In this document: piece by piece, positions 1,422 to 45,076 of the stretch
Numbering within the stretch: the first letter of the stretch is position 1
Layout of the letters: each line of letters opens with the position of its first letter
Origin: Candidatus Saccharimonadales bacterium
Lineage (GTDB): Bacteria; Patescibacteriota; Saccharimonadia; Saccharimonadales; UBA10212
Assembly: GCA_036507655.1 (NCBI GenBank)
Contig: DATCIS010000019.1
Coordinates: 10,736-74,735, forward strand
DNA: 64,000 nt
Reading direction: 5' to 3'
Program-made: the position numbers and the translations under genes
The notes under the pieces: model-generated
Seen by the model: only the letters and a program-made list of their open reading frames with translations
What the model was told of the DNA's origin: nothing
Databases searched by the model: none

Positions 1422-3917
1422 CTATTCATTCTTGGATGAATAAGCCAGCTCAGGTTCTTTTCGCTTCTGTGATTTCTTAACCGCTACAGATACAACGTCA
1501 CCCTTGTGGAAAGTATCCTCCAACAGGCCGGCAGCAATCGCGTCTTCCAGAGTTTCCTGTAGCAAACGGCGCATCGGCCGGGCACCGTTATGCGCGTCGT
1601 AGCCTTTCTCAAGCAGATAGTCTTTGGCTGTTTTATTCACCTGCAGGCCGATGCCTTTTTTGACAAGACGGCTGCGTAGATCGTCAAGCTGTAAGTCTAA
1701 AATCCTCAAAGCGTCTTTCTTGGTTAGGGCGCGGAAGACGATTATCTTATCGATACGGTTCAGTAGTTCAGGCCTCATCATTCTTTTAATCTCGTCCAGG
1801 ACTTTTGTCTTGTTAGCGTCGTGCAGCTCATCAAGATTGTCCAGATCAGCAGCGCTAATAGCCGAGAAGCCAAAACTGGCCTCTTTTTGCAGTTTTTCGG
1901 CGCCGAGGTTACTGGTCATGATAATGATTGTATTCGTAAAGTCGATCTTACGGCCTTTGGCATCACTTAAAACACCGTCTTCAAGGATTTGCAGTAGAAT
2001 ATTGAAGACTTCCGGGTGGGCCTTCTCGATTTCGTCGAACAGCACTACGCTGTATGGCTGATGACGGATTTTATCCGTCAGCCGGCCGCCGTCGTCATAA
2101 CCTACGTACCCGGCCGGTGCGCCGACTAACCTGGCAACCGTGTGATGCTCACTAAATTCACTCATGTCGATTTTGACCAGCGTTTCTTCCGAACCGAAGA
2201 ACTCGCGGGCCAGCACACGGGCTAATTCTGTCTTGCCAACACCCGTCGGGCCAAGAAAAATAAATGAACCAATCGGCCTTTTTTCAGACGAGATACCGCT
2301 GCGTGAGCGGCGGACGGCCCGGGCTACGGTAGACACCGCTTCATCTTGGCCGATGATGTGCTTGCTCAAATTCTTCTCTAAACTAACAAGATACTTCGCC
2401 TCGGCGCGAATCACCTTGGTTACCGGAACACCTGTCATCCGTGATACGGTTTCAGCCACATCATCTGCGGACAAAGTTATCGGTTTACCAGCTTTGTGTG
2501 TCTTCTCAAGCTCTTTCATCTTTTCGTTAAGTTGGCTGGCAATCTGCTTTTCGCGCGCCGCTTTTTCATAATCTTCGGCATCAACCGCGTCTTCAATTCG
2601 TCCATTGACCAGTTTAAGTTCTTTTTGCAGCTGCCGCAGCTCGGGCGGAGTCTTACCCTTGTTTACTCGCAGGTAGGCGGCTGTTTCATCCAGCAAATCG
2701 ATAGCCTTATCCGGCATATAGCGGTCATTAATGTAACGGCGAGCGAATTGGACGGTGTCATCCAGCACTTCGTCATCAACCTTGACGCCGTGGAATTCCT
2801 CGTAGTATTTGCGCAAGCCCTTCAGAATAGCCAAAGTCTCAGACGGAGTGGCTTCAGGCACTTGGACCGGCTGGAAACGGCGTTCCAAGGCCGCATCTTT
2901 TTCGACGTGGCGGGTATATTCATCGGTAGTTGTTGCACCAACTAAGCGGATTTTGCCACGAGCCAGGCTCGGTTTGAGTATGTTGCCGGCATCCATTGAG
3001 CCTTCGGCAGCGCCGGCACCGACGATTAGGTGTAGCTCGTCAACGAAAACGATGGTTTCTTTGTCATTCTCGAGCTCGGCGATGACTTTCTTGAGACGGT
3101 CTTCGAACTCTCCGCGGTACTTAGTACCGGCAATCATACCGGCCAAGTCCAATGTAATAATTCGCTTGTTTAACAGGCTATCGGGCACTTCTTCATTGAT
3201 GATGCGTTGGGCAATACCCTCAACGATGGCTGTCTTTCCAACGCCAGGTTCGCCGATGAGCACCGGATTATTCTTGGTGCGGCGGTTCAGAATGGTAATT
3301 ACACGGCGGATTTGGGCTTCACGGCCGACTACTGGGTCTAGTTTGTTTTTACGCGCCAAATCGGTCATATCAGTGCCAAAGAATTCGAGTGTAGTTCTTC
3401 GCCCGCTTTTGCCCCGCCGGCGACCGGTGGCTCCGGATCTGTCATCTTCGTATTGCTGACGGTTAAGAAACTGTTCGACTTCGCCGCTCAGACGGTCGAT
3501 ATCCACCCCCATATCGCGCAGTAGAGTGGTAGCCCGGGCGTTCTTCTGGCTCAAAATGCTGTACAAGATGTGTTCTGTACCGCAGTAATCCTGATTAAAT
3601 TCCTGGGCGATTTCCCAAGCCATCTTCAAAGTTAACTTGGCGGTTTCGGATAGACCTTTACCGCCCATGTTAATAACTAGAGTCTTTGGTGTCAGATTAA
3701 GAGCCAAGCGCGCTCTGTCTAAATTAACGCCAACTCCTTCTAAAATTTTCGAACCCATTGAGCCCTCCTGGGCTAATACTCCTAGCAGCAGATGCTCGGT
3801 GCCAATGTAAGCGCTGCCCGATGCCCGGGCAATGGCGTCAGCGTGTTTTAATGAATGCAACGCGTTATTAGTCAAATGGCTTAAAAATTCTTGAAAATCC
3901 GGTGAATTTGGAATCAT
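1422..3917 (-). CDS. clpC: ATP-dependent Clp protease ATP-binding subunit ClpC (two AAA+ modules, Clp_N repeats, UVR-like linker)
   Basis: 831 aa; Walker A GEPGVGKTAI and GPTGVGKTEL, Walker B FVDELH and LFDEIEKA, sensor GARPMRR, N-terminal Clp_N repeat pair; TAG stop. Confidence 0.92.
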   Translation of the reverse strand: MIPNSPDFQEFLSHLTNNALHSLKHADAIARASGSAYIGTEHLLLGVLAQEGSMGSKILEGVGVNLDRARLALNLTPKTLVINMGGKGLSETAKLTLKMAWEIAQEFNQDYCGTEHILYSILSQKNARATTLLRDMGVDIDRLSGEVEQFLNRQQYEDDRSGATGRRRGKSGRRTTLEFFGTDMTDLARKNKLDPVVGREAQIRRVITILNRRTKNNPVLIGEPGVGKTAIVEGIAQRIINEEVPDSLLNKRIITLDLAGMIAGTKYRGEFEDRLKKVIAELENDKETIVFVDELHLIVGAGAAEGSMDAGNILKPSLARGKIRLVGATTTDEYTRHVEKDAALERRFQPVQVPEATPSETLAILKGLRKYYEEFHGVKVDDEVLDDTVQFARRYINDRYMPDKAIDLLDETAAYLRVNKGKTPPELRQLQKELKLVNGRIEDAVDAEDYEKAAREKQIASQLNEKMKELEKTHKAGKPITLSADDVAETVSRMTGVPVTKVIRAEAKYLVSLEKNLSKHIIGQDEAVSTVARAVRRSRSGISSEKRPIGSFIFLGPTGVGKTELARVLAREFFGSEETLVKIDMSEFSEHHTVARLVGAPAGYVGYDDGGRLTDKIRHQPYSVVLFDEIEKAHPEVFNILLQILEDGVLSDAKGRKIDFTNTIIIMTSNLGAEKLQKEASFGFSAISAADLDNLDELHDANKTKVLDEIKRMMRPELLNRIDKIIVFRALTKKDALRILDLQLDDLRSRLVKKGIGLQVNKTAKDYLLEKGYDAHNGARPMRRLLQETLEDAIAAGLLEDTFHKGDVVSVAVKKSQKRKEPELAYSSKNE

Positions 3918-31298: not shown

Positions 31299-31976
31299 AT
31301 GATTATTGTCGGTCACCGCGGTGCGTCGGGGTTAGCTCCGGAAAATACCATTAAGGCCTTAGAGCTCGGCCGGGATTTGGCCGACGGCGTGGAATTTGAC
31401 GTCAGAGTAACCAAGGATAAAGTTCCCATACTTAACCATGATGCCGGAATATTCGATAAAGATAGCAGACGGTGGTTGATAAAAGATTATAGCTATTCTC
31501 AGCTCAAAAAACTGAGACCGAGCCTGGCAACTCTGGAAGAAGCCCTGTCGCTCAAGTATGGTAAGACCCGTGTCTTCATTGAAATCAAAGCCCTAGAGCC
31601 AACCGAGCCGATAATTCAAGTTATTCGGCCATATTTTAAAAAAAGGCGGCTTCAAATCGCTATCGGGTCATTTGATTTTGAAGTTCTAAAAAAAGTTCGA
31701 ACTCAGCTCCCGGAAGTTCAGTTATTGATCAACGAAAGGTGGTCGAGCTTAAGGGCCAATTGGCGCGCCCGCCAACTTAATACCAATCAGATAAATATTG
31801 AGCACCGCTTCTTATGGTTTGGACTAGTAAGCATGCTGAGCAGGCGAGGGATTGTGCTCTATACTTACACTCTAAACGACCCCCGTAAAGCCCGCAATTG
31901 GCAAAAGCACGGCTTAGCCGGAGTATTTACAGATTTTCCTAACCTCTTTACAAGAAAAGTTAGTCGGTTACGCTAA
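31299..31976 (+). CDS. glycerophosphodiester phosphodiesterase (GDPD family); start set at MIIVGHRGASG
   Basis: HRGASGLAPENT and EFDVRVTKDKVPILNHD motifs; the ORF-track start at 31242 adds 19 unlikely residues. Confidence 0.75.
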   Translation: MIIVGHRGASGLAPENTIKALELGRDLADGVEFDVRVTKDKVPILNHDAGIFDKDSRRWLIKDYSYSQLKKLRPSLATLEEALSLKYGKTRVFIEIKALEPTEPIIQVIRPYFKKRRLQIAIGSFDFEVLKKVRTQLPEVQLLINERWSSLRANWRARQLNTNQINIEHRFLWFGLVSMLSRRGIVLYTYTLNDPRKARNWQKHGLAGVFTDFPNLFTRKVSRLR

Positions 31977-32391
31977 CCGTACCATGCATCGAGGGATGAA
32001 GACCGCAGATATAGTTAAAGCTGCCGACCTGGTTGAATGTAAAGCTAAAAGTATCATTATTGCCTAAGTTTTGGCTCTGAGGACCGCTGTCCGATTCGGC
32101 CTCAATAGTGTGAGCTACGCTGTCATTATTCGTCCAAGTTACCTTTGTTCCCTTCTTAACGGTTATATCAGTAGGTGAAAACGCGAAATTACTAATGCTG
32201 ACTTTATCAGTCGAAGCCGCTGATTGGTTATTCGAGGAAGTGTTTTGGCTATTTTGAGTAGTTGAGCTGCTCTGCTGGGTTGAGTTGTTATCAGTCTGAT
32301 TATTACCTCGACCGGCGACTATAAAAATAGCAGCCGCTATTAAGGCGATTACAATTAAACCCGCCAGATATTTCATTCTATAAACCTCCAT
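31960..32391 (-). CDS. cupredoxin (amicyanin/plastocyanin-like type-1 copper protein) with N-terminal membrane anchor and Ser/Thr/Asn/Gln-rich linker
   Basis: Ligand pattern H (SVAHTIE) ... YICGLHPSMHG (C-x2-H-x2-M as in amicyanin). Confidence 0.6.
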   Translation of the reverse strand: MEVYRMKYLAGLIVIALIAAAIFIVAGRGNNQTDNNSTQQSSSTTQNSQNTSSNNQSAASTDKVSISNFAFSPTDITVKKGTKVTWTNNDSVAHTIEAESDSGPQSQNLGNNDTFSFTFNQVGSFNYICGLHPSMHGTVSVTD

Positions 32392-37239: not shown

Positions 37240-39774
37240 CTAAACTCGTTCGGCGCCAAGTTCAGTTTCAGCCCTAGCGCTTATTTCATCAAGGATTTGA
37301 TTGACTTCGGGCGTGGTTAGAGTTCTCTGTGGATGCCAAAGTGTCAGCCGCCAAGTAGTCTGTTTAAGGCCTTTGCCCTTTGCTCGCTGGAAAATGTCGA
37401 GCGGCTCAATCGTAACACTGTAGCCGTGTTCTTTGGCGGCTTTATCTAGTTGCGTACCTAAAAAATCGGTCAATGCCGCATACGAAAACTGCGTTGATGA
37501 GCGTAAACACAGATCTTGATCAAGGCTAGGGAAGCGATTGAGCGGACGGTAATTGATCCGGGCGGCCGCTATGCTTTGTAGCAATGCAATATCGAGTTCG
37601 GCCATAGATGAGTCTGCCGAGAGCTTAAGAGCCAATTTCAGCTCGGCAGATGGTTCTCCGACAATCCCTAGAGCATTGCGACCGGCATATACCACGGCTG
37701 TACGTCGAGGTTCATAGGCCTCTGAGGCAACCTGCCATTCCTTGGTCAGTTTTTTAACTTCATCAAGCGGCTGATATTGGATATCGTCAATACTTAACTT
37801 GTTAAGTAAATTGTCTATATAATATTTAGCCCTATAGAATGGAGCGCCCAATTCTTTAGTCTTATCGACTGAGACCAGGACCAGGCCCAACCTCAGCAGT
37901 TCCGCCGGCAATTTTTCACTGTTATCTACTCCCCTGATGTGAGCCGCGCCAATTTCAAACAAGGCGAAACTGCTAAATCGGGCTTTGATATTTGGATGGA
38001 CTTTCTCAAGTAAGCTCGGCGTTAAACTCAATCGGTAATATTGTAAATCGGGGCTAGTTGCGTTGCGGATATGGTAGGCGTCTTTAGTAGCTTGGCCGGC
38101 ATTTTCAATCAGAGAACCGTGAACAAAACTATACGTCAAAACTTCATTAGCGCCAGCTGACGATAGAATGCCGCGCATGCGTGATTTGAAAGCCAGCACC
38201 GGATCAAGCTCAGCCGGGCTTAAATCGCGCGGCGGCAGCTGCTGTGGTAGATGCTCGTAACCATAGAGGCGCCCGATCTCTTCAACTATGTCTTCGGGGA
38301 TTTTTATGTCCTTCCGCCAGAACGGCACCTGGACCGCCAATGTTTTGCCACTCGTTTTAATCCTGAACTCAACATTTTCTAACAGCCGGCTCATTTCGCT
38401 AGCAGATAAGTTTATGCCTAAGCGTTCATTAACGAAAATAGTTGTGACTTTAACTGTCGGTGGCTTTACCAACTGACCTTTAAGGTCGTAAATACTGCGT
38501 GCTGGCAGCCCGCCCGACTCATGGATGACGGAGTCGACGGCGCGAGCCAGCACGCGGTCGGTCTGCCAGGGGGACTGATTTTTTGTGAAGCGGGCGGCAG
38601 CATCCGTAAATAGACCATAATCCATAGCGGTTCTGCGCGTGACGCGCATATCGAAATTACCGACTTCCAAAATGATACTTCTGGTTTTCTCATCAACTTC
38701 GGTTGCCGCCCCGCCCATTACCCCCGCCAAACCGATTGGCTGTTTATCTGTGGCAATCACCAGCTCGCCGCCTGACAGAGTAACTTCTTTACCGCCTAGC
38801 AACACCAGTTTTTCGCCCTTTTGGGCTTCACGGACTACAATTTTTGCTTGATTGTTGCCGCATAGACTTTTTAGCTTGTCGTAATCATAGGCGTGAATCG
38901 GCTGAGCCGTTTCAATCATTAGAAAGTTGGTAACATCGACGATGTTATTGATAGGCCGTACCCCAACGCGAGCCAAATAGCTTCGAATATCTAGTGAGGC
39001 ATCGTTGACTTTGACGTTTTTAACGACTTGCATCATAAACCGTGGGACCAAATTTGGTACCTGGTTTTTAACGCTTAGCAGCTTGTCGTCTGTCTTGTGG
39101 CGGCCGGTAGTCTTATCGCCCAAGTACCACTTGGGCGAGCGGAAAACCATGTGTTGAATGCCGGCCAGTTCGCGGGCTATGCCCAGCATGCCAAAACAGT
39201 CCGGCCGATGCGTGAACATCTTGTTTTCGATATCGATTATATAATCATCCAACTCATAAACTTTGGCAAAATTATCGCCTGGTTTGGCAGCTTTATCAAT
39301 TTCAATAATCCCGGTGTGGTCATCGCCCAGCTCCAGCTCTTTGGCGCTGGCCAACATGCCGTGGCTAACCACACCGCGGATCTCTCGAACTTCCAAGGTA
39401 AGCGGTTCTTTATCGATTGTGCTCGGAACAGCTACACCTGGCGGAATCCAGGCGGCTAACATACCGGTTTTGACGTTCGGCGCGCCGCAGACAATTTCAA
39501 TCAGCCCGTCTTTGTCACGTTTTACGCCCTTGATTTTGCCACCGTCGTCAGCCAAACAAACGCTTAGCTTATCGGCGTTTGGGTGCTTCTGGTTTGAAAC
39601 AACTTTAACGACAACAATCCCTTTGTATTTTTTTCCAACGTCAATAACTTCTTCTACGGCCCCGAGCTGGGCTCCTATTTTCTCAACTAAAGCATCAACA
39701 CCGTCAGGAACAAGATTGGCCGAGCACTGGTCGGCCTCGACAATCGACCTAATCCAGTTAAGGCTAACCTTCAT
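37240..39774 (-). CDS. pheT: phenylalanine--tRNA ligase beta subunit
   Basis: 844 aa; tRNA-binding, B3/B4, B5, catalytic-like and anticodon-binding domain order typical of PheT. Confidence 0.95.
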   Translation of the reverse strand: MKVSLNWIRSIVEADQCSANLVPDGVDALVEKIGAQLGAVEEVIDVGKKYKGIVVVKVVSNQKHPNADKLSVCLADDGGKIKGVKRDKDGLIEIVCGAPNVKTGMLAAWIPPGVAVPSTIDKEPLTLEVREIRGVVSHGMLASAKELELGDDHTGIIEIDKAAKPGDNFAKVYELDDYIIDIENKMFTHRPDCFGMLGIARELAGIQHMVFRSPKWYLGDKTTGRHKTDDKLLSVKNQVPNLVPRFMMQVVKNVKVNDASLDIRSYLARVGVRPINNIVDVTNFLMIETAQPIHAYDYDKLKSLCGNNQAKIVVREAQKGEKLVLLGGKEVTLSGGELVIATDKQPIGLAGVMGGAATEVDEKTRSIILEVGNFDMRVTRRTAMDYGLFTDAAARFTKNQSPWQTDRVLARAVDSVIHESGGLPARSIYDLKGQLVKPPTVKVTTIFVNERLGINLSASEMSRLLENVEFRIKTSGKTLAVQVPFWRKDIKIPEDIVEEIGRLYGYEHLPQQLPPRDLSPAELDPVLAFKSRMRGILSSAGANEVLTYSFVHGSLIENAGQATKDAYHIRNATSPDLQYYRLSLTPSLLEKVHPNIKARFSSFALFEIGAAHIRGVDNSEKLPAELLRLGLVLVSVDKTKELGAPFYRAKYYIDNLLNKLSIDDIQYQPLDEVKKLTKEWQVASEAYEPRRTAVVYAGRNALGIVGEPSAELKLALKLSADSSMAELDIALLQSIAAARINYRPLNRFPSLDQDLCLRSSTQFSYAALTDFLGTQLDKAAKEHGYSVTIEPLDIFQRAKGKGLKQTTWRLTLWHPQRTLTTPEVNQILDEISARAETELGAERV

Positions 39775-39937
39775 TCTTGGCCTCTCGCATCGCCTCTTCG
39801 TGCTCTATCGATTTCATAGATATCTCCAGGTTGCAAGCATTGTTAGCCTTGCAAAAAGCTTCGCACTCTTTGGCTAGATTCTCGTTCCGGTAATGGTGCC
39901 CGCACTCCGGACACTGGAAAATTTTTTCCTGGCTCAT
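39764..39937 (-). CDS. unannotated 57-aa Cys-rich (zinc-ribbon-like) small protein between pheS and pheT
   Basis: MSQEKIFQCPECGHHYRNENLAKECEAFCKANNACNLEISMKSIEHEEAMREAKNEG. Its ATG overlaps the pheS TGA (ATGA), and its last codons overlap the pheT ATG. It is below the ORF-track length cutoff. Confidence 0.45.
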   Translation of the reverse strand: MSQEKIFQCPECGHHYRNENLAKECEAFCKANNACNLEISMKSIEHEEAMREAKNEG

Positions 39938-40980
39938 GAAAACTGCCTCAGGAATGCTAAATTGCCACTTTCAAAATGACGGATGTCTTCGATGTTGTAT
40001 TTGAGCATCACTAGACGCTCGATGCCGAATCCCCAGGCAAAGCCGGTGTATTGGCTCGGGTTGATTCCGCCCTCTTTCAGAACATTGGGATGTATCATAC
40101 CGCAGCCGCCGAGTTCTATCCATCCGGTGTGTCCGCAGACATTACAGCCGGCTCCGCCGCAGAATGGACAACTGGCGGCGAATTCAAAACTGGGTTCAGT
40201 GAACGGGAAATAGAAGGGCTGGATTTTGATATCAATATCTTTTTGATAATAGTTGCTCAGCCAGGCTTTGATGGTCGCCACAAGATGTCCGGCGTGAATT
40301 CCCTTATCCACATAAACGCCCTCCAGTTGGTAAAAAGTGTGCTCGTGGCGGGCGTCCAAATCTTCGTTGCGGAAAACTCGGCCGGGAATTACAACTGCTA
40401 TCGCTTGACCGTTTTTGAGATTACCAGCGTACTGCTTCAGTACGCGGTTTTGCATGGTGCTGGTGTGGGCCGGCGCTATCAGCTTTTCGTCGGTCACAAA
40501 CGTGTCATAATCGTCGCGTGCCGGATGACCGGGCGGGAAGTTGAGCGAGCCGAACATATGGTAATCATCATCAAGCTCGCGCGATTCTACGGCCGTAAAA
40601 CCCATGCGGGCAAATATGTCGAGAGTAGTTTCCAGCTCGGTCATTAATGGATGCTGGCTGCCATATTCAGACGCTAAAAGTTTAGGGCGGTCGTCGGGCT
40701 CAACATTGGTATCAAATGGCGCGGTTACATCGATAGGAGTGCTTTTGGCTTTTGGCTTTTGGCTTTTTGTCAGTGAAATCAGGTTTTCCAACTCTTGCTT
40801 CAGTTGGTTGACTTCTCGACCGAATTCGGCGCGGGCTTTCCCCGCTGGTAATGTTTTTATGTGGTCAAACAAGGCTTGAAGCTCTGGAGCGCGTAAAATT
40901 ACCGGCTTATCATCAAGCTTGTCAAACTTAGCTTTCAGCCGTCTGGCAGCTTCCCGTATTTCGGGGTTCTTATACACCAT
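39934..40980 (-). CDS. pheS: phenylalanine--tRNA ligase alpha subunit
   Basis: 348 aa; class II motifs including FPFTEPSFEFA and GFAWGFGIERL. Confidence 0.95.
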   Translation of the reverse strand: MVYKNPEIREAARRLKAKFDKLDDKPVILRAPELQALFDHIKTLPAGKARAEFGREVNQLKQELENLISLTKSQKPKAKSTPIDVTAPFDTNVEPDDRPKLLASEYGSQHPLMTELETTLDIFARMGFTAVESRELDDDYHMFGSLNFPPGHPARDDYDTFVTDEKLIAPAHTSTMQNRVLKQYAGNLKNGQAIAVVIPGRVFRNEDLDARHEHTFYQLEGVYVDKGIHAGHLVATIKAWLSNYYQKDIDIKIQPFYFPFTEPSFEFAASCPFCGGAGCNVCGHTGWIELGGCGMIHPNVLKEGGINPSQYTGFAWGFGIERLVMLKYNIEDIRHFESGNLAFLRQFS

Positions 40981-43853: not shown

Positions 43854-44585
43854 CTAATCTATAGCGATACGGGTAAGGAGGAACATAGAAAGAGCGCCCA
43901 TAATTGTTAGGCCAATTGTCAGGCGGGAAGAATTTTTGCTATGCGCCTGCGGTAAGATGTCGCTGGCGCCGATATATAGTAAAAAGCCGGCAAAAAACCC
44001 CAGATAAACCGCCAACACAGCTCCCGAGAGCGAAAAAAGTAAACTGCTTAGGCCGCCCATAATCGGCATCACCGCGGCTATCGCCAGCATTTTTTTAGCC
44101 CGGGATGGTTTGTTTTGGTGGTAAAGCATAACGTTGGTGGTGTTAAAACCATCGGCGAAGCGGTGGCCAATGACGGCAATTGCTACTGCTGCACCGACCG
44201 CAGTGCTAACTTGGAAGCCGATGCCTATACTCAGACCGTCTAGAAAGCTGTGTCCTGACAAAGCCACTGCCCCTGCAACACCGACAAAAGGATGCCGGTG
44301 CGGACCGTATTTTTCTTCGCTGCCATGGTGAATCAAGATAAGTTTTTCGATTACGTGAAATAGCAGAAAACCGCTGACCAAGGTTATCATTGGCCAAATA
44401 GGGTCAAGGTTTTCTGAGAAGCTAATCTCGAAAATCTCGGGTAGTAAGTTAAATGCCACCAACCCTAAAATCAAGCCGGCGGTAAAACCGAAGGCCAGGT
44501 GCAGCCTGCGTCGCCCGCGGATAGCAATAAACCCACCCAGCAATGCTGCCAAGGCAGCCGCCAGGGTTAGGAGGAACAACACCAT
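43854..44585 (-). CDS. ZIP-family metal (zinc/iron) permease
   Basis: 243 aa, 8 predicted TM, His-rich motifs HHGSEEKYGPHRH and SGHSFLDGLSIGIG. Confidence 0.85.
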   Translation of the reverse strand: MVLFLLTLAAALAALLGGFIAIRGRRRLHLAFGFTAGLILGLVAFNLLPEIFEISFSENLDPIWPMITLVSGFLLFHVIEKLILIHHGSEEKYGPHRHPFVGVAGAVALSGHSFLDGLSIGIGFQVSTAVGAAVAIAVIGHRFADGFNTTNVMLYHQNKPSRAKKMLAIAAVMPIMGGLSSLLFSLSGAVLAVYLGFFAGFLLYIGASDILPQAHSKNSSRLTIGLTIMGALSMFLLTRIAID

Positions 44586-44653: not shown

Positions 44654-45076
44654 ATGCACTACAAAACGTTGCGGGCACTACTGAAGAAAAACGGTTCGAG
44701 CCTTACCAAGCCGCGTAAGGTTGTTTTTGATTTACTTTTCAACCAAAAACCACAGACTATGCAGGTCTTAATCGGTCGGGCTAAAGATAGGGTGGACCGA
44801 GCCAGCGTTTATAGAGCTATGGAGTTGTTTGAGAAGCTGGGAATTGTCAACCGCTTAAATATCGGCTGGAAATACAAGTTCGAGTTATCTGATGTCTTCC
44901 AAGAACACCACCATCATTTCCACTGTACCAACTGCGGTACAACGTTCAGTCTTGAGCCAAACTCGATGCTTGAGACAATGATAGATACAGTAGCTGCCAA
45001 ATCCGGTCACTCGCCACGAGGCCACCAGCTAGAGGTTTACGGATTATGCGCCGATTGCCAACGTCGGACCGCCTAA
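44654..45076 (+). CDS. zur: Fur-family transcriptional regulator (Zur-like, divergent from ZIP transporter)
   Basis: 140 aa; winged helix then HHHHFHCTNCG ... LCADCQ metal-binding motifs. Confidence 0.85.
   Translation: MHYKTLRALLKKNGSSLTKPRKVVFDLLFNQKPQTMQVLIGRAKDRVDRASVYRAMELFEKLGIVNRLNIGWKYKFELSDVFQEHHHHFHCTNCGTTFSLEPNSMLETMIDTVAAKSGHSPRGHQLEVYGLCADCQRRTA

Follow-up and report, generated by a model that had tools for sequence, protein, structure and literature searches.

A 64,000-nucleotide stretch of a Candidatus Saccharimonadales genome (contig DATCIS010000019.1 of assembly GCA_036507655.1; hereafter the window) carries a 57-aa Cys-rich microprotein gene between pheS and pheT, which encode the alpha and beta subunits of phenylalanyl-tRNA synthetase (PheRS). 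With modest confidence, we read its product as a probable metal-binding microprotein that travels as a passenger in a hypervariable slot of the operon and belongs to a family tied to copper and metal handling, rather than as a dedicated PheRS subunit. A metal-handling role is proposed because relatives occupy the middle position of csoR-X-copA arrangements, are coupled to ArsP_1 and cupredoxin genes, and occur as natural fusions to HMA, HMBD and DUF2933 modules.

A constrained microprotein gene in the pheS–pheT spacer

The gene spans 39764..39937 on the minus strand, from an ATG at 39937-39935 to a TAG at 39766-39764, as read from the open reading frame (ORF) listing and the sequence. Its translation is MSQEKIFQCPECGHHYRNENLAKECEAFCKANNACNLEISMKSIEHEEAMREAKNEG. 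As the initial annotation had stated, it fills the 159-nt spacer between pheS and pheT. On the 5′ side, pheS (39934..40980, minus strand; 348 aa; Pfam tRNA-synt_2d at 3.8e-73, NCBIfam TIGR00468) ends in a TGA (39936-39934) that shares bases with the microprotein ATG in an ATGA arrangement. On the 3′ side, the first 11 nt of pheT (37240..39774, minus strand; 844 aa; Pfam B3_4, B5, tRNA_synthFbeta, tRNA_bind and FDX-ACB; TIGR00472 (pheT_bact) at 6e-166) form the end of the microprotein gene, with the pheT ATG at 39774-39772. Both overlaps had been described correctly at the outset.

Two Shine–Dalgarno (SD)-like sequences accompany these overlaps: GAGG at 39946..39949 (minus strand), within the last pheS codons (..L-R-Q-F) and 8 nt 5′ of the microprotein ATG, and GAGAGG at 39781..39786 (minus strand), in the 3′ end of the microprotein gene and 6 nt 5′ of the pheT ATG. 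Together with the start/stop overlaps, they uphold the earlier assignment of the gene to a pheS-X-pheT operon. Ribosomes that finish pheS would restart at the overlapping ATGA by way of the SD inside the pheS 3′ end, and the microprotein gene would in turn carry the SD for pheT, such that the essential pheS-pheT operon would express the microprotein as a passenger. Within 36.5-41.5 kb, an Rfam scan matched no family and a promoter/terminator scan found no excess of such sites; the spacer is therefore no known leader or riboswitch. The gene had also been called unannotated, which is true in that it has no name, but public gene predictions for the source contig already include it.

A 57-codon open frame could on its own be explained by chance, at a probability of (61/64)^57 or ~0.07 per frame, and we accept it as a gene because it is conserved. 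Compared with L001, the closest genome locus (PheS 84% identical), the microprotein gene has a dN of 0.051, a dS of 0.95 and an omega of 0.054. For the same pair, omega is 0.091 for pheT and dN is 0.113 for pheS, placing the microprotein under tighter constraint than pheT. The 23 nucleotide differences from L001 split 5/1/17 over codon positions 1/2/3. A second pair, L007/L003, gave an omega of 0.042; usable values came from these two pairs only, because dS is saturated in most ortholog pairs. The codon-substitution check that the initial annotation had proposed thus came out in favor of a coding frame.

The search for homologues, also proposed there, returned hundreds of proteins. A single-sequence, word-indexed search with the microprotein found 3 proteins, a profile of 11 orthologues found 438 homologues and a second profile 655. 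An exhaustive hidden Markov model (HMM) search of 1.84 billion representatives found at least 820 clusters (50% identity) at E<=1e-3, and 360 at E<=1e-10. Among the matches listed, the exact spacing C-x2-C-x12-C-x3-C-x5-C is kept in 119 of 120 homologues. Within a family set of 113 sequences, C9, C12, Y16, C25, C29 and C35 are invariant, and G13, L14, H15, A22, I39 and E45 are conserved at 90% or more. The family is spread Patescibacteria-wide, nearly all members measure 48-65 aa, and the sole name given by sources that name members is 'hypothetical protein'. We conclude from the substitution pattern and this conservation that the 57-codon ORF is a genuine, strongly constrained coding gene.

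Scans of the microprotein with Pfam, NCBIfam, PADLOC and PHROGs gave nothing at threshold. A tblastn search with the microprotein against plasmid and phage collections found no match, and the family had no matches in defence or phage HMM libraries. In these searches, nothing marked it as a mobile-element or defence gene.

A predicted beta-beta-alpha finger with four Cys ligands

The five Cys residues recognized initially, and then called zinc-ribbon-like, lie at positions 9, 12, 25, 29 and 35, and a zinc-finger-like character fits their spacing and an AlphaFold2 model. They define a metal-ligand core, C9-x2-C12-x12-C25-x3-C29-x5-C35 (39833..39913, minus strand), that is unique in the window; the codons are at 39913-39911 (C9), 39904-39902 (C12), 39865-39863 (C25), 39853-39851 (C29) and 39835-39833 (C35), with H15 and Y16 also located inside the core. 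The AlphaFold2 model, built on the 113-sequence alignment, has a predicted local distance difference test score of 89 and comprises a hairpin (residues 7-8/15-16), a helix at 19-32, and further helices at 37-40 and 44-55. Residues 5-32 are thus predicted to form a classical beta-beta-alpha finger with Cys at each of the four ligand positions (C9, C12, C25 and C29) and with zinc as the presumed metal. The two short C-terminal helices carry the invariant fifth Cys (C35) and the near-invariant I39 and E45.

Foldseek comparison with the Protein Data Bank (PDB) returned, among the matches listed, nearly exclusively C2H2 fingers (Tramtrack, CTCF, Zif268); the closest of these superimpose with a root-mean-square deviation of 0.6-0.9 Å across 22-26 residues, with all E-values at 0.8 or above. 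In a PDB profile search, the family profile aligned with consensus fingers through the 'EKPYKCPECGKSF' hairpin. The pattern of the microprotein, F7-x-C9-x2-C12-x3-Y16-x5-A22-x2-C25-x3-C29, is identical to the classical C2H2 finger (PF00096) in ligand spacing and hydrophobic positions, (F/Y)-x-C-x2-C-x3-(F/Y)-x5-(L/A)-x2-ligand-x3-ligand, and a hairpin and a helix are predicted for it. It also fits the general C2H2 spacing C-x2-4-C-x12-(ligand)-x3-5-(ligand), with aromatic residues at -2 and +4 of the Cys pair. The microprotein differs in having Cys (C25 and C29, invariant across 113 sequences) where both His ligands stand, in being a lone finger followed by a conserved helical extension of 25 residues that contains the fifth Cys, and in being acidic and bacterial (Patescibacteria). 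The Pfam zf-C2H2 profile (PF00096) scored the microprotein at 13.7 bits, under its gathering cut-off of 25.2.

The only curated family that recognizes these proteins is DUF7128 (PF23447), matched at E<=0.1 by 99 of the 113 relatives. Some relatives linked to CopA and carrying Trp at position 28 (W-type) pass its gathering score of 25.7 bits (26.8-30.5 bits), and the window microprotein gave no match at E<=0.1. By these profile scores, the microprotein family lies at the edge of DUF7128, an uncharacterized Pfam family that no paper found in our literature search mentions.

Other small Cys-rich modules are more distant. TRASH/YHS metal-sensing domains reportedly follow the spacing C-x2-C-x19-22-C-x3-C. 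These are likewise small Cys4 modules found beside heavy-metal ATPases and proposed to sense or traffic metals, but the inter-pair spacing of the microprotein is 12 rather than 19-22, its predicted fold is beta-beta-alpha rather than treble clef, and the YHS Pfam profile gave no match at E<=1. The archaeal small CPxCG zinc-finger microproteins (HVO_2753-like, PF07754) are also stand-alone, ~50-60 aa and often unannotated. Matches to them, for a relative in Pfam (E 0.43) and in the PDB profile search (E 0.1), reach only the level of the CPxCG knuckle, and ligand architecture and phylum differ.

Genomic contexts point to a probable role in metal handling

To place the family beyond PheRS, metagenome contigs were scanned with a motif seed, which yielded 80 loci. 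About 20 of the 80 lie at pheS or pheT, and about three quarters of the sampled members are near neither gene. The largest other class, 21 of 78 metagenome loci, sits beside a P1B-type ATPase of 720-830 aa with an E1-E2_ATPase domain, two HMA domains and a CPC motif. In 20 of these 21 loci the stop of the small gene overlaps the ATPase start from upstream; in the remaining one, L122, the ATPase is upstream of the gene. A CsoR-family repressor is encoded upstream in L110 and L119. In Bacillus subtilis, csoR-copZ-copA is the canonical arrangement (PMC7558416), and the small gene can be said to occupy the copZ position because it lies between CsoR and an overlapping CopA-type ATPase in these relatives.

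The comparison with CopZ extends to the protein, which is likewise small, soluble and Cys-rich, and one relative of which is fused to an HMA domain. Unlike CopZ, the microprotein lacks the HMA ferredoxin-like fold (no Pfam match to HMA, PF00403) and the MxCxxC motif, its predicted fold being beta-beta-alpha, and the window copy is not adjacent to copA. CopA-linked members form a subfamily marked by W28 and S34 (L109, L110, L119, L121, L136-L140, L143-L149, L159, L163 and L164, with the gene at ~3500-3650 in 7-kb loci); where sources name their genomes, the names are Nomurabacteria, Azambacteria, Parcubacteria group and unclassified Patescibacteria. Members from the pheS–pheT slot have F or Y at position 28 and mostly A34, and members of this type are likewise found next to ArsP_1, cupredoxin and CDF genes. 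In L169, the gene for an F-type member that shares 60% identity with the window protein is joined by an ATGA overlap to one for a Cupredoxin/Copper-bind protein. Further neighbors of the family encode ArsP_1 permeases, DUF3105 proteins, Cation_efflux (CDF) proteins, an HMA-DsbD_2 membrane protein and pyridine-nucleotide disulfide oxidoreductases. The domain also occurs naturally fused to HMA (P0222), HMBD (P0146) or a DUF2933 membrane module (P0180, P0201 and P0261), all above Pfam cut-offs; DUF2933 regularly features in copA clusters (PMC8478169). The occasional fusion to GrpE or to a methyltransferase seems fortuitous.

By the predicted fold, zinc would be bound through C9, C12, C25 and C29. 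The genomic associations suggest that the microprotein most probably binds a thiophilic metal, Cu(I) and/or Zn(II), which it would buffer or pass on. C35 and H15 may provide a second metal site.

Several observations weigh against this assignment. The Foldseek E-values are non-significant, which we attribute to the tiny size of the domain. The metagenome scan was seeded with one peptide pattern and includes near-duplicate contigs. The strongest case for a metal link comes from the W28/S34 subfamily of Parcubacteria-type genomes, and the window protein is F28/A34; its closest relatives (65-77% identity) all reside in the pheS–pheT slot. A search of the 64-kb window for homologues of CopA, CsoR, ArsP_1, CDF and DUF3105 found none. 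Finally, recurrent residence in one operon (~30 loci) could itself reflect a functional tie to PheRS.

A finger of this kind could also be stabilized by zinc without trafficking any metal, serving as a small adaptor in protein interactions or as a thiol-redox switch, for example a stress sensor with oxidizable Cys. Acidic single fingers often mediate protein contacts, some neighbors are pyridine-nucleotide disulfide oxidoreductases or DsbD_2 proteins, a CxxC domain is fused in P0142 and P0191, and the invariant fifth Cys and near-invariant His15 go beyond the canonical four ligands. The dominant contexts and all recognizable fusions, however, are metal modules (CopA, CsoR, HMA, HMBD, DUF2933, CDF and cupredoxin) and not redox enzymes, and we regard this alternative as unlikely.

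Two further features recur around family members. In the CopA-linked loci, an unannotated secreted or membrane-anchored protein of 153-163 aa is encoded upstream in 9 loci. A ~120-aa domain ('FVYNAKSGFLN...C-x-L-C...FLHKDEF') without a Pfam match is fused N-terminally to the zinc-finger domain in P0142 and P0191 (residues 1-120), and it recurs as a separate gene (L127:3071-3442) immediately 5′ of the finger gene and an ArsP_1 permease gene.

Within the window, the sole outcome of the metal-gene search was a weak cupredoxin-like match at 31969-32202 (minus strand; 36% identity over 87 aa, E 7e-12) to the L169 blue-copper protein. About 3-4 kb upstream of pheS lie a ZIP-family metal transporter gene (43854-44585, minus strand) and a divergent gene for a Fur-family (Zur-like) regulator (44654-45076, plus strand), with Pfam labels taken from the gene calls of the source contig. 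Genes for RmuC and a trehalase-like glycosidase separate this zinc-uptake locus from pheS, leaving it near, not in, the operon.

The pheS–pheT junction as a hypervariable slot

A PheS-based scan with one genome per species gave 80 Saccharimonadales loci, and both gene ends could be placed in 71. In 23 of the 71, pheS and pheT overlap directly (ATGA); in 46, between one and six co-oriented, mostly ATGA-coupled genes intervene; the rest comprise one 18-nt gap and one 126-nt gap that lacks a convincing ORF. Only 8 of the 71 have the zinc-finger gene. A Pfam census of 64 of the cargo genes counted HIT (13), MazG (9), DUF5674 (5), PNPOx_N (5), 23S_rRNA_IVP (3), NYN (3), DUF3850/ASCH (3), Ser_hydrolase (3) and Nuc_deoxyrib_tr (2) proteins, with an SDR, a GDSL lipase, a flavin reductase, a cupin and a methyltransferase as singletons. 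The cargo derives from more than 14 unrelated Pfam families. The corresponding interval is 39775-39933 in the window and, in L001-L080 (pheS on the plus strand), runs from ~5020 to the pheT start.

The coupling sequence is shared across this variety. The 3′ ends of pheS nearly always read ..TT(C/T)TGAGGCA(A/G)TT..ATGA, and the CTGAGGCA motif is kept in almost all 71 loci whatever gene follows. Because almost every pheS ends alike, one embedded SD and one stop/start overlap can serve any following gene. Most other cargo genes likewise end with GAGG or GGAG shortly 5′ of the pheT ATG. On a neighbor-joining tree of PheS, the zinc-finger gene is scattered (window and L001; L003; L007 and L008; L051; L019; L035; L022) and close sisters differ, L022 having the gene and L016 lacking it; HIT is more clade-coherent. 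Its place within the slot varies as well, being directly after pheS, directly before pheT, or with cargo on both sides, as in the orders pheS-ZF-DUF5674-x-IVP-pheT, pheS-IVP-ZF-PNPOx-pheT and pheS-NYN-MazG-DUF3850-ZF-pheT, where ZF denotes the zinc-finger gene. Judged by gene content across these loci, the pheS–pheT junction is a hypervariable slot in Saccharimonadales, occupied by unrelated small genes that differ from lineage to lineage. Location there does not imply a PheRS function.

The slot also holds elements of other kinds. A conserved ~100-130 nt element is found in the slot of some relatives (L004:5018-5150, L167:3168-3350 and, in part, L003:5840-5960), and in L004, which has no zinc-finger gene in the slot, it makes up the whole 126-nt spacer. 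It folds very stably (-54.4 kcal/mol, z=-6.2) with hairpins CTGATTT/AAATCAG and TCTAACGGG/CCCGTTAGA, matches no Rfam family and does not occur in the window. It may represent a small RNA, an attenuator or what is left of a mobile element. In L166 (3153-3329), a close relative, a further putative 58-aa ORF with a non-ATG start and no conserved Cys motif was called between the zinc-finger gene and pheT.

These data bear directly on the proposal in the initial annotation that the coupling marks a lineage-specific small subunit or regulator of PheRS, which would be made in step with PheS and PheT and bind the synthetase. Such a partner might feed or guard a Cys4 knuckle in PheS, or tune Zn-dependent side reactions. 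The tight double overlap with pheS and pheT is consistent with this proposal, as are the slot residence of the three closest relatives looked up (65-73% identity) and of ~30 loci overall, and the slot-enriched F/Y28 and A34 signature. PheS itself contains a CxxC..CxxC knuckle, the insertion CPFCGGAGCNVCGH (window 40129-40170, minus strand; PheS residues 271-284), and PheRS is a classical Zn-dependent producer of diadenosine tetraphosphate (Ap4A), according to the entry for Plateau et al. 1981 listed in PMC7072326. Against it stand the absence of the gene from all but 8 of 71 related loci, 23 of which have nothing between pheS and pheT, its scatter among close sisters, and the unrelated cargo that often separates it from pheS, pheT or both. 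The identical ATGA and SD coupling serves more than 14 unrelated cargo families, F-type members also adjoin ArsP_1, cupredoxin and CDF genes, and pheS or pheT is close by in only ~20 of 80 metagenome loci. A distribution this patchy, with repeated gain or loss, and the many unrelated genes with the same coupling thus disfavor the proposal, which we consider quite unlikely.

Co-variation of the PheS knuckle with the microprotein was considered and rejected. Every one of the 81 Saccharimonadales PheS sequences examined has the knuckle, with or without the zinc-finger gene, and the knuckle is therefore independent of that gene.

A broader version of the idea treats the slot as a lineage-specific PheRS accessory module whose interchangeable passengers (HIT, MazG, NDT-like, NYN and the zinc-finger protein) act on PheRS or its side products. 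Many slot passengers do handle nucleotides (HIT, MazG, NDT-like and NYN). HIT enzymes could clear aminoacyl-adenylate or Ap4A. For the zinc-finger protein, conceivable roles are loading of the PheS Cys4 knuckle or control over the Zn(II) that drives PheRS to make Ap4A. If so, the microprotein would be a facultative PheRS regulator in ultra-small Saccharibacteria, an outcome we judge very unlikely.

Nucleic-acid binding and non-coding alternatives

Since beta-beta-alpha is the archetypal DNA- and RNA-binding finger fold, the microprotein could instead be a nucleic-acid-binding regulator, for example of its own operon, like Ros/MucR or the archaeal TRASH-domain regulators found by copA. A few family members are basic, with isoelectric points (pI) up to 9.5. 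The 6.6-kDa window protein, however, has a pI of 5.3 and a net charge of -4, and the family median pI is 5.6; this acidity disfavors nucleic-acid binding. The Ros/MucR finger profile (ROS_MUCR, PF05443), like YHS, gave no match to the microprotein at E<=1. In addition, copA loci already have a dedicated CsoR repressor, and the gene is co-translated with a transporter in the manner of a chaperone rather than divergently transcribed in the manner of a regulator. A nucleic-acid-binding role is accordingly highly improbable in our estimation.

A chance ORF, or a spacer that acts as an RNA leader or attenuator, would fit the short length (57 codons) and the lack of a named family at threshold but is effectively refuted by the omega near 0.05, the third-position bias, and the Cys residues invariant across hundreds of homologues in differing contexts; the null Rfam and promoter/terminator scans also speak against it.

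Significance

Small stand-alone zinc-finger proteins and DUF7128 are already known, and the window gene adds a new member that scores below threshold. A literature search on Saccharibacteria pheS/pheT and on small zinc fingers with copA in Patescibacteria found nothing directly relevant. Neither the hypervariable pheS–pheT slot nor the candidate role in copper/zinc handling in Patescibacteria, both of which rest on comparative genomics, appears to have been described in the searchable literature.

The analysis recovers a strongly constrained microprotein that falls under common ORF cut-offs and places it in a large Patescibacteria-wide family. It also cautions against taking translational coupling as a sign of shared function: in Saccharimonadales, the point where the two genes of an essential operon meet is a hot spot for varied small genes. 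The slot shows how streamlined genomes can express accessory genes without promoters of their own, all using the ribosome-binding site embedded in pheS. For the family, the work offers a testable hypothesis: the Cys4 beta-beta-alpha finger may be a copper- or zinc-handling protein of candidate-phyla-radiation bacteria, possibly replacing CopZ.

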